From: a virus
Lineage: Duplodnaviria; Heunggongvirae; Uroviricota; Caudoviricetes
Reading direction: 5' to 3' (one strand)
Length of the DNA stretch: 64,000 nucleotides
Virus record (IMG/VR): IMGVR_UViG_2721755651_000007
Under the pieces are notes generated by a model that did not search any database, was not told where the DNA came from, and saw only the letters and a list, made by a program, of their open reading frames with translations. The first letter of the stretch is position 1; each line of letters opens with the position of its first letter. Below, in pieces: positions 709 through 48,780 of this stretch. Both the position numbers and the translations under genes were made by a program.

Positions 709-785
709 TGGCGCGTTGTAGTGGAGTCGAACCACTGACCGATTGCTTAGAAGGCAATTGCTCTGTCCGGCTGAGCTAACAACGC
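709..785 (-). tRNA. argO: tRNA-Arg (anticodon UCU)
   Basis: 77-nt cloverleaf on minus strand: 7-bp acceptor stem, anticodon loop CUUCUAA, T-loop TTCGACT, 3' CCA; near-identical second copy at 48781..48857. Confidence 0.9.
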
Positions 786-885
786 AGAATACCGATAATG
801 GACCGCCATCGGGGACCCGGCCCCGCACCAACAACCCTGTTATGGTGTCGTCTGCTCTTCCTGATAAGCTAATGGCGGTTTGTGA
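786..885 (-). other. degenerate tRNA-like remnant between the Ile and Arg tRNAs (argN-position)
   Basis: tRNA-like acceptor and D-arm (CCGCCAT-TA-GCTT..GAGC ... ATGGCGG-T-CCA) but no canonical anticodon or T arm. Confidence 0.3.
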
Positions 886-961
886 TGGTGGCCCTTGCTG
901 GATTTGAACCAGCGACCTGGCGATTATGAGTCGCTCGCTCTCACCACTGAGCTAAAGGGCC
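886..961 (-). tRNA. ileZ: tRNA-Ile2 (anticodon CAU, ileX-like; Met not excluded)
   Basis: 76-nt cloverleaf, anticodon loop CUCAUAA, T-loop TTCAAAT, 3' CCA; resembles E. coli ileX. Confidence 0.85.
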
Positions 962-4519: not shown

Positions 4520-4640
4520 CGGATTCTCCGGTGACAGCAGGTGTCAGTTGTTCAGGCTGACTGCGCGAATTGTAAGGCAATACGCCGGAATGTACAAACA
4601 GAAAACCCGTCAGTAAGACGGGCTTAACAAGCAGGGGCGG

Positions 4641-4985
4641 TTACTTTAATAATTTCAGTGCCTTTACATCAACTTCAACACTGCTCAGGTCTTTATCAAT
4701 TTCACCCTCAATTCTTACTTTGTCTTTCGGAGAAACATTCTGCCCGGCCCATACGCTGTCATCAATATCCGTGACAATTGTCCCGCTATTGTCACGAAAC
4801 TCATAACGTTCATCACCCACTTTTTTAACGATGCTCCCTTCAAGGATAACCCATGCATCATCCTTCAGTTCTTTTGCCTGCGCTACTGTTGAACGCTCTG
4901 CTTCTGGCCCCTGGAAACCACCCTGCTGTGCAAAAGCGCCAAAAGACACACCGGAAATAAGTGCTGCAATCAATACCTTTTTCAT
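4641..4985 (-). CDS. YgiW/YdeI-family periplasmic OB-fold (BOF) protein
   Basis: signal peptide MKKVLIAALISGVSFGAFA, length and composition typical of YgiW family. Confidence 0.7.
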   Translation of the reverse strand: MKKVLIAALISGVSFGAFAQQGGFQGPEAERSTVAQAKELKDDAWVILEGSIVKKVGDERYEFRDNSGTIVTDIDDSVWAGQNVSPKDKVRIEGEIDKDLSSVEVDVKALKLLK

Positions 4986-5104
4986 TCATAGTCCTCTTTC
5001 AGAGATGAACATTCAAACAGCATTTTCAGTATGGTAAAGCGCGGGTGCGTTGAGGATGCCTGACACATCAGAGGTGGCGGGAGATTACTCCCCCGCCTGG
5101 TCTC

Positions 5105-5260
5105 TTACTTCTCAGATTCGTAGTCTACGAAGACAGCGACCTCCGTCTGACCGGTTCGGATTCGCACCTCGCAGAGGTCTTTCCTCGTTACCAGTGCCGT
5201 CACTATGACGGTTAAACAGATGACGATCAGGGCGATTAACATCGCCTTTTGCTGCTTCAT
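5105..5260 (-). CDS. hok: Hok/Gef-family type I toxin (51 aa)
   Basis: MKQQKAMLIALIVICLTVIVTALVTRKDLCEVRIRTGQTEVAVF closely resembles HokC/Gef; in-frame upstream extension in ORF 5105..5317 looks mok-like. Confidence 0.8.
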   Translation of the reverse strand: MKQQKAMLIALIVICLTVIVTALVTRKDLCEVRIRTGQTEVAVFVDYESEK

Positions 5261-5550
5261 AGCCTGCTTCTCCTTGCCTTTCGGCACGTAAGAGGCTAAC
5301 CTACATGTGTTCAGCATGGATTGAGCCTCAGATTAATGTTAAGCGTCTTGCAGGACGCGTAATGTTAACTGGGGCTTTTCTCTATCTGCCGTTGGTGTTC
5401 ATGCCCGAGGCAGATAGCCTCAAGCACCCGCAGCAATTCTACTTAACTATCCTTTTCCCGCAAACCGTTTTTATCCCCAGCGGCAAATCGAATACACCAC
5501 CAGCGCCACCGCCATCGCAATTCCTACCGTTGTGAATGCTTCAGGCCAGG

Positions 5551-6108
5551 TCATTGATTCACCTCCTGCGGCGGTTCTGGTAGCGACATCCAGTGGGTTG
5601 CTTGCCTAAGATCATTACCCGGACTAACTGCTATACCTCCGCGCCGGAACGTGCCTCCGAGATAGCGTGCGGAATATATTAATGGCCCAGCCTCGCTATC
5701 GATATTCATCGAAATAAGCACGTTCTGGCTCTTTTCAGGCATTCGCTCAGTACAGCTTATCCAGCCATCCAGAGTTATCGGAGATCTGGTTGACGTTTCC
5801 GAGATTTCCCGAAAATTGTTGGTTGACGAATTCTTATTTTCCCGAAAGTTTCCGGCCTGAAGCATGGCGACGCGGCAGGCGTTCCAGCCATCAGCATATG
5901 TTTTAGTTACACCGTCGAGATGGCAGGTAAGCAAATCCATTTCATCAGGCACTACCATTGCTATCGGCTCTGCTTCCAGTGATGCCAGCGCGATACGAAA
6001 CACATTAGCCAGCAGGCTGTCTGAAGACTTGTTATCGTGCGCCGAGTCGCTCAGGAAGCCTGTGATGTATGATTTAATCTCCGCGCGTTCTCTGGTAATA
6101 GTGCTCAT
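5551..6108 (-). CDS. DUF551-like phage protein
   Basis: C-terminal W..C.ERMPE motif region typical of DUF551. Confidence 0.5.
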   Translation of the reverse strand: MSTITRERAEIKSYITGFLSDSAHDNKSSDSLLANVFRIALASLEAEPIAMVVPDEMDLLTCHLDGVTKTYADGWNACRVAMLQAGNFRENKNSSTNNFREISETSTRSPITLDGWISCTERMPEKSQNVLISMNIDSEAGPLIYSARYLGGTFRRGGIAVSPGNDLRQATHWMSLPEPPQEVNQ

Positions 6109-48257: not shown

Positions 48258-48780
48258 TATTCCTCCCCTTTCCGGGATTTTCCTCAACAGTTGCGGGCCA
48301 CGGTCCGGCCACAAGGAGAATCAAAAGAGGAGAACCGCAGCCCGCAAAACGAAAAAGGCCGCGCAGTTGCGCAGCCTTATAAACCCTGGTTAAAATCCAC
48401 ACGATAAAAATGACAATGCAAGTATCTCATGCTGTTGCCCGAACCCACTCGGGCTTTTTTTTGCATGTAAAAAGGCTCCTGCGATGAGAAGCCTGGATAT
48501 ATGCCTAATCTCTGTATACAGCATGATGCCGGGTGCCTCCCGGTGAATTCTGCAATGACCAGACAGAATCCGCAACTTGCCTATACAATACGCAACCAAA
48601 CATCTGTCATTATGCCCCGCCGCTCAGGGGGATTCATCATGCAGGATTTTTTTAACAAACGCTCAGCATGTCAGGCAACAGTCAACTGCCTGAATTGTGA
48701 GGCATTTAACATTTCACTGTCCGGTGTCTTTCCTGTAATAAAAAGCCCGCAAAAGAGAGTCAGGGCAGATAAGTGTGGTG

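Follow-up and report, generated by a model that had tools for sequence, protein, structure and literature searches.

Toxin–antitoxin loci of the hok/sok family, which belong to type I, have been under study since the 1980s, and one of their prophage-borne members, hokW-sokW of the Sakai prophage Sp5, was characterised experimentally by Takada et al. in 2021 (PMC8621323). HokW was found to be toxic, sokW transcribed from its own promoter neutralised it, and mutation of the −10 box abolished this protection (PMC8621323). Both RNAs were detected on Northern blots, and the system was partly dependent on RNase III and Hfq (PMC8621323). Upon addition of mitomycin C, sokW was lost and HokW appeared in the inner membrane in a RecA-dependent manner, with a doubling of the phage yield (PMC8621323). 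The locus is annotated as mokW, hokW and 'SokW antisense RNA' in phage 933W (NC_000924) and VT2-Sakai. The system is already known and annotated, and one of the two loci described below, copy A, is of the type that has been characterised experimentally.

The two loci, copy A and copy B, lie 48 kb apart on one chromosome, within the window, i.e. the whole stretch of 64,000 nt that was analysed. Gene annotation was taken from the chromosome of Escherichia coli strain 319 (NZ_CP018241.1), which is colinear with the window and 100% identical to it (window position = 1817774 − record position). Both loci carry a 70-aa open reading frame (ORF) with an internal ATG, at 5260 in copy A and at 53642 in copy B, from which a hydrophobic 51-aa peptide is encoded (Table 1). 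A sequence-only reading of the window had proposed two copies of a Hok-like toxin of this length. The proposal was borne out by Pfam, in which the full 42-position HOK_GEF profile (PF01848, cut-off 22 bits) matched copy A with 79.8 bits (E 1.1e-22) and copy B with 75.9 bits (E 1.7e-21), and by a tblastn search of the entire window, which returned these two copies at the proposed sites and no third one. Both encode a Hok/Gef-family membrane toxin that is small (~50 aa) and has a single helix. The scores against the NCBIfam Hok subfamily NF007279, 53.6 bits for copy A and 44.3 bits for copy B, are below its curated, strict cut-off of 73. The full-length Rfam model RF01794 (gathering score 59) matched the leader regions at 5255-5429(-) with 113.5 bits and at 53640-53789(-) with 103.9 bits, and the toxin and leader matches of both copies are far beyond chance. 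In RefSeq, the toxins are listed as 'Hok/Gef family protein' (WP_000813258.1, copy A) and 'hokD' (WP_032287685.1, copy B), and only the 51-aa toxin is annotated at either locus, without mok or sok features. For each of the two loci, annotated genes of 100% identity occur in hundreds of STEC genomes, and O157 genomes contain 4–8 matching places each. The intervals first drawn around the loci, 5105–5320 and 53487–53700, contained the correct ORFs, with ends that were off by 3 and 1 nt, respectively. The functional loci, at ~5042..5464 and ~53401..53820, are about twice as long as these intervals.

Taken together, it is very probable that each of the two loci is a complete type I module of the hok/mok/sok kind and serves as an accessory cassette in one of two tandem lambdoid prophages, with copy A as an allele of hokW-sokW and copy B as an intact hokD. 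The features on which this assignment was built are collected in Table 1.

Table 1. Positions of the features of copies A and B and of neighbouring genes in the window
Feature	Position	Strand	Basis and remarks
Copy A mok (mokW-type) ORF	5105..5317	-	70 codons, in frame with hok; maps onto mokW of 933W; aligns with K-12 MokC
Copy A hok, 51 aa	5105..5260	-	CDS identical to 933W hokW
Copy A putative hok/mok mRNA promoter	5436..5464	-	-10 TAGAAT 5441..5436, -35-like TTGCGG 5463..5458; read from sequence
Copy A hok mRNA core (hokW-type)	5042..5429	-	tac 5429..5418 to fbi 5054..5042; Rfam start and fold
Copy A mRNA-leader hairpin with mok AUG (Sok target)	5292..5329	-	local fold; 7-nt loop CUGAACA; corresponds to Rfam consensus hairpin
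Copy A G+C-rich 3' UTR hairpin	5076..5097	-	between hok stop and fbi; folds; conserved, in part through compensatory changes
Copy A first intrinsic terminator 3' of hok	4603..4625	-	after ygiW, at the end of the module common to 933W
Copy A Sok promoter	5274..5302	+	TTGCCT 5274..5279, 17-nt spacer, TAACCT 5297..5302; published mutagenesis of -10
Copy A Sok RNA (sokW-type), 71 nt	5309..5379	+	transferred from 933W sokW misc_RNA; geometry as K-12 sokC
Copy A cargo, YgiW/BOF-family periplasmic OB-fold protein	4641..4985	-	Pfam BOF 1.9e-33, NCBIfam NF033674; directly after fbi
933W features transferred to the window	hokW 5260..5105; mokW 5317..5105; sokW 5309..5379(+); ygiW-like gene 4985..4641		annotation transfer
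Copy B mok ORF	53487..53699	-	70 codons, in frame with hok; N-terminal extension MokC-like
Copy B hok, 51 aa	53487..53642	-	I17 for T17 relative to K-12 HokD, one residue
Copy B putative hok mRNA promoter	53790..53824	-	-10 TAGGAT 53801..53796; aligned to copy A
Copy B hok mRNA core (intact hokD-type)	53425..53789	-	tac 53789..53778 to fbi 53437..53425; Rfam match and fold
Copy B intrinsic terminator	53401..53418	-	directly after fbi; K-12 hokD has the same
Copy B putative Sok promoter	53656..53684	+	TTGACC, 17-nt spacer, CAATCT; positional homology with copy A and sokC
Copy B predicted Sok RNA, ~49 nt	~53691..53739	+	homology to sokC and sokW
Copy B neighbour, AcfC-family adhesin Paa, SBP_bac_11 fold	53978..54736	-	Pfam SBP_bac_11; RefSeq name

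The window covers two tandem lambdoid prophages of an O157-type E. coli chromosome, with the late genes on the minus strand. In prophage A, the gene order around the locus is P – DUF1627 – IS1203 – … – DUF4014 – DUF551 – hok – ygiW-like – hypothetical – DUF968 – RusA – DUF1133 – … – tRNA-Ile/Arg, and in prophage B it is P – DUF1627 – fimbrial pseudogene – paa – hokD – two hypotheticals – DUF968 – RusA – DUF1133 – methyltransferase – tRNA-Ile/Arg, followed by lysis and morphogenesis genes. Each copy is thereby placed between the replication gene P and the DUF968/RusA/DUF1133 block, in agreement with the nin-region location originally suggested. The cargo was also recognised in part: the gene beside copy A is YgiW-like, as had been stated, and the 'solute-binding-like' gene beside copy B does have an SBP_bac_11 fold, but it encodes the adhesin Paa. 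The paa gene, which is associated with attaching-effacing E. coli, is virulence cargo located directly upstream of copy B, beside a frameshifted fimbrial gene. Prophage A is defective, with IS1203, ISEc8 and IS256 fragments, a truncated integrase, a truncated recE and pseudogenes. In prophage B of the strain 319 record (window ~20000..32000 and 35000..38000), the genes for tail tip protein J and the portal are frameshifted and that for tail protein L is truncated, and both prophages are probably defective. The two are separated by NleG-family effector genes and nested IS256/ISEc8 insertions.

Small RNA genes from other families were also recorded in the window. DicF (Rfam, 75 bits) is located at 13952..14003(+) in prophage A, ~175 nt upstream of dicB; prophage B has dicB as well (~61130..61318 (+)), where no DicF match reached the Rfam gathering score. 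Downstream of the tRNA-Ile/Arg pair of prophage B, at 48402..48671, AgvB (an anti-GcvB sRNA on the plus strand, 56.6 bits with a gathering score of 56) stands back to back with STnc100 (minus strand, 175 bits), an arrangement typical of EHEC prophage sRNA islands. At the tRNA pair of prophage A (712..961), neither AgvB nor STnc100 was hit by Rfam within the window.

Using a 431-nt query from copy A, the locus was found in 110 phage records. Compared to mokW/hokW/sokW of 933W, 428 of the 431 nt are identical (99.3%), and the Hok and Mok proteins are the same in both. The three substitutions are at 5449, at 5352 in the Sok hairpin loop, and at 5097 in the 3' UTR. Copy A and the 933W locus also share the 27-aa small ORF upstream and the ygiW-like gene downstream. 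Of the 16 hokW-sokW primers and probes in PMC8621323, 15 are exact matches to copy A, and the remaining one is mismatched at a single position. The exact matches include primers YO-421 and YO-422, used for mutagenesis of the sokW −10 box, which flank and replace window positions 5297..5303 containing TAACCT, and the sokW Northern probe YO-592, which equals window 5309..5338. In the published work, the YO-421/YO-422 mutation destroyed sokW transcription (PMC8621323). Judged by this near-identity, copy A is an allele of the experimentally established type I toxin–antitoxin system hokW-sokW. The surroundings differ, however. Copy A resides in the nin region of a defective prophage, whereas in 933W the hok-ygiW module is found outside that region, close to the right end of the record, with an Ea22-like gene on one side and a very large LPD5-domain ORF on the other. 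Since prophage A is defective, the role in phage release shown for Sp5 may not apply to copy A.

The predicted hok mRNAs of both copies show the closed form known for this family. Position 1 of the Rfam model falls on 5429 in copy A and on 53789 in copy B, where the sequence reads GGGUGCUUGAGG, and a −10 box (TAGAAT and TAGGAT, respectively) is found 6 nt upstream. In copy A, this putative box and its spacing are kept in the homologues. When 5429..5038 and 53789..53420 were folded, the first 12 nt (tac) paired with CCUCAACGCACCC (fbi) in the MFE as well as the centroid structures of both copies. The fold-back inhibition element, which had been suggested for mapping, could in this way be positioned in each locus. 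The predicted energies were −162.6 kcal/mol for copy A (z −7.2) and −151 kcal/mol for copy B (z −6.0), and none of 100 shuffled sequences folded as well. In an RNAalifold consensus of 12 homologues, the tac/fbi closure was kept in all ten that cover it, with pairs that are invariant except for one G-C to G-U change; across homologues, the closure is a matter of conservation, without covariation support. The local fold of copy B places the mok AUG in a leader hairpin with the 7-nt loop CUCGUCA, as the counterpart of the copy A hairpin in Table 1. Both loops start with YUNR, which we take to be the motif type described for antisense target loops. Mapping of promoters had likewise been proposed. 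For the Sok promoter of copy A this is achieved by the published −10 mutagenesis, while the two hok promoters and the Sok promoter of copy B are putative. A generic scan of both loci with sigma-70 and terminator consensus sequences flagged neither the hok and Sok promoters nor the Sok terminators, a result that was not counted against the loci, since the Sok promoter of copy A is experimentally validated and the thresholds of the tool are strict.

The overlapping upstream frame, with its start codon in the Sok target, is present in both copies. As anticipated in the sequence-only reading, it resembles mok, with homology to both K-12 mokC and 933W mokW, which are annotated and are each in frame with their hok. 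The mok start is located 57 nt upstream of the hok AUG, and in frame with it, in copies A and B, 933W, hokC and four other phage copies, i.e. in eight of the 12 aligned homologues. In these, translation of mok necessarily yields an N-terminally extended Hok, and in several phage records the 213-nt ORF is the only one annotated, under the name 'host killer protein'. It could therefore be argued that the true product is the 70-aa extended Hok and that mok is not merely regulatory. The conservation pattern speaks strongly against this. The 19-residue extension is poorly conserved between copies A and B, whereas the Hok part is 90% identical. In Rac442 and a P1-like plasmid-prophage, mok starts 58 nt before hok, which places it in the +1 frame with an unrelated peptide, and one further relative, an Stx1c phage, has ATA where the start codon would be. 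In addition, the 51-aa HokW ORF is toxic by itself (PMC8621323). The 70-aa ORF was consequently rejected as the true product, an interpretation that we regard as highly improbable given the variable mok frame among close relatives. As frame and ATG vary in this manner, the Mok peptide sequence is not constrained, and an in-frame mok is, in the aligned sequences, a feature of a subgroup and not of the whole family. It was also observed that the codon for Tyr47 of Hok (5120..5123 and 53502..53505, minus strand) precedes a G, so that the two copies and each of the 11 intact aligned homologues read UACG there. TadA is reported to carry out A-to-I editing at this motif in hokB, changing Tyr to Cys, and a 2026 preprint states the same for hokC, hokD and hokE.

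With regard to the antitoxin, Sok had been expected on the plus strand over the mok start, near 5260..5320 in copy A and near 53640..53700 in copy B. Strand and target proved correct, with sokW of 933W mapping to the plus strand there, but the span did not: the proposed interval holds the promoter, and the RNA itself lies farther upstream relative to hok (Table 1). Sok starts 9 nt inside mok and runs toward higher window coordinates, into the leader of the hok mRNA. An antisense RNA encoded in cis, with its own promoter and terminator and complementary to the mok initiation region, was accordingly identified. In the predicted Sok RNAs, the 5' tail is single-stranded, and a long hairpin and then a U run come after it. 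The fold of Sok A reached −30 to −31.5 kcal/mol, compared to −19.1 kcal/mol for the complementary strand, and that of Sok B −22.1 kcal/mol (z −3.4), compared to −8.7 kcal/mol. The Sok strand folds better than its complement because its G-U pairs turn into A-C mismatches there, and this strand-specific folding supports a structured plus-strand RNA in the models. For copy B, promoter and RNA are predicted by homology, while those of copy A are backed by the published mutagenesis and Northern blots. The −10 box of copy B, CAATCT, is weak.

The Rfam model RF01794, although named 'sok', matches the hok-sense strand, where it covers the leader of the mRNA as far as the hok AUG. Its hits in K-12 and in 933W are likewise on the strand opposite to the annotated sokC and sokW. 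The minus-strand hits were considered as a possible contradiction of a plus-strand Sok and rejected as such: with a consensus that runs up to the Shine-Dalgarno sequence and AUG of hok, the model describes the hok-sense leader, which accounts for hits on the minus strand. Strand-aware annotation from RF01794 would assign Sok to the incorrect strand.

One or both copies could be decayed, non-functional relics, as are the majority of the chromosomal hok loci in K-12. In K-12, hokA, hokC and hokE have been inactivated by IS elements and hokD is without a leader. Prophage A is full of IS elements and pseudogenes, and decayed relatives are known in 673R7, in which hok is frameshifted, and STEC1589, with its missing mok start. 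For copy B, the weak Sok −10 box points in the same direction. Yet hok, mok, tac, fbi and the Sok promoter and hairpin are all intact in both copies, the near-identical hokW-sokW is functional (PMC8621323), and both sequences are 100% conserved in >500 genomes. Moreover, decay of Sok alone would be expected to result in cell death. On balance, decay of either copy is improbable, and complete modules remain the preferred reading.

If these modules operate like the R1 paradigm, a weak promoter would give rise to a stable ~390-nt minus-strand mRNA, in which pairing of the 5' tac with the 3' fbi would keep the molecule closed and untranslated. Hok would be translated only when the overlapping mok frame is translated, a coupling that follows the R1 example. 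The short and unstable plus-strand Sok, made from its own promoter inside mok and fully complementary to the leader across the mok start, would block mok and hence hok, and the resulting duplex would, as in R1, be cleaved by RNase III. Once Sok synthesis stops, upon prophage induction or loss or transcription shut-off, Hok would be made and inserted into the inner membrane, leading to depolarisation or lysis. Translational coupling, 3' processing and RNase III decay are thus ascribed to these copies by analogy. Toxicity, the antitoxin activity of Sok, both transcripts and induced HokW have been demonstrated by others, on sequence near-identical to copy A only; to this, the present analysis adds the ORFs, homologies, predicted folds and promoter positions of the two copies.

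One step of this scheme is less readily transferred to copy A. Copy A and 933W share ~970 bp (~5568 to ~4600), comprising the 27-aa hydrophobic small ORF, hok/sok, ygiW and the terminator. When the ygiW-bearing loci were compared to the terminator-bearing ones (copy B, K-12 hokD, Tritos and PPompW), homology ended just after fbi, which indicates that ygiW sits between fbi and the terminator in the ygiW-bearing loci. A terminator scan found no terminator-like site between fbi of copy A and 4625..4603. In the absence of a terminator between fbi and ygiW, the 3' end of the mRNA, and hence activation by 3' trimming as in R1, is uncertain. Read-through of the hokW-type mRNA into ygiW may occur, which would make the transcript bicistronic and fbi internal rather than 3'-terminal. 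Such an arrangement would be a poor fit to R1-style activation by 3' trimming.

The 27-aa hydrophobic ORF (MTWPEAFTTVGIAMAVALVVYSICRWG), which is unannotated in the window, occupies 5471..5554(-), just upstream of the hok promoter, and its ATG overlaps the DUF551 stop codon (ATGA). By tblastn, it was found at 63-100% amino-acid identity in 88 phage records, some of which annotate it as a hypothetical protein. Its place is often behind a DUF551 gene or one of the Ea22 type, and it may represent a genuine small membrane protein.

The two co-resident copies have diverged in a very uneven manner. Identity between copies A and B is 98% in tac and the first hairpin, 88% in the Sok promoter and mok extension, and 94% both in the hok CDS and from the 3' UTR to fbi, but it drops to 46% in the Sok-coding block and to 33% in the Sok hairpin body, including a 21-nt indel. 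The homology ends directly after fbi and ~30 nt upstream of tac. In the set of 12 homologues, variability was highest in the stretch made up of the mok-start hairpin and the Sok 5' tail, and compensatory changes were seen at four pairs of the Sok hairpin. The predicted duplexes of full-length Sok with its leader amounted to −139 kcal/mol for A and −104 kcal/mol for B in the cognate combinations, compared to −34 and −37 kcal/mol when crossed. With the Sok 5' tail only, the corresponding values were −39 and −43 kcal/mol, and −12 and −17 kcal/mol when crossed. From these modelled energies we infer that Sok A and Sok B would be orthogonal, each acting on its own hok only. Near-identical hokW-type copies elsewhere in the same genome, on the other hand, would cross-protect in trans. 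A search of the literature on cross-talk between hok/sok paralogues yielded nothing specific. A more far-reaching interpretation, which we put forward tentatively and rate somewhat below even, is that the Sok/target block is a diversification hot-spot setting which prophage hok loci interact. On this view, the Sok specificities of the prophages in an O157 genome would form a network, which would determine the prophage whose Hok is made upon induction or loss. A hok-ygiW mRNA that is possibly bicistronic, with fbi in an internal position, is a second part of this interpretation. The divergence of co-resident copies in Sok alone offers a simple, testable hypothesis on antitoxin orthogonality among prophages. 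This divergence and the uncertain 3' end of hokW-type mRNAs are the mildly new aspects of an otherwise described system, and the initial interpretation of the two loci is supported overall.

When set against the better-known members of the family, the two loci share with hok/sok (parB) of R1 and IncF plasmids the Rfam leader family (106.6 bits for the IncF locus), the Pfam toxin family and the regulatory logic. HokW is, however, only 44% identical to R1 Hok (PMC8621323), and the IncF plasmid locus examined has its mok (DUF5431) in a different frame from hok. The plasmid systems act in post-segregational killing, whereas the prophage loci are linked to phage release. The chromosomal hokC (gef)/mokC/sokC of K-12 is closer in its layout, with mok in frame with hok, a Sok start 9 nt inside mok and the tac sequence GGGUGCUUGAGGCU. 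It differs in not being prophage-borne, in a Hok of 50 aa, in a diverging 3' UTR and fbi region, and in an adjoining IS186. The leader of copy B in particular resembles this locus, which is the closest K-12 relative of its Mok extension (MLVTYRLPLTDRKVKEKQA, compared to MLNTCRVPLTDRKVKEKRA in MokC) and of its Sok promoter (TTGACC, 17 nt and CACTCT upstream of sokC).

The toxin of copy B, in turn, is that of K-12 hokD (RelF, Qin prophage), with 50 of 51 residues identical, and HokD is toxic in published assays; the functional claims made for copy B itself are carried over from the R1 paradigm. The DNA of the two is near-identical and colinear from ~20 nt upstream of the AUG, in the Shine-Dalgarno region, through fbi and the terminator. 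Their positions are syntenic as well, upstream of rem-like genes and of a DUF968 (ydfU-type) gene. In K-12, relBE replaces the leader, so that tac, mok and sok are missing, whereas copy B has all three and adjoins paa. In practical terms, an intact hokD-type locus exists beside a virulence adhesin gene. Judged from these alignments, copy B is the intact form of a locus that K-12 keeps only as a truncated remnant.
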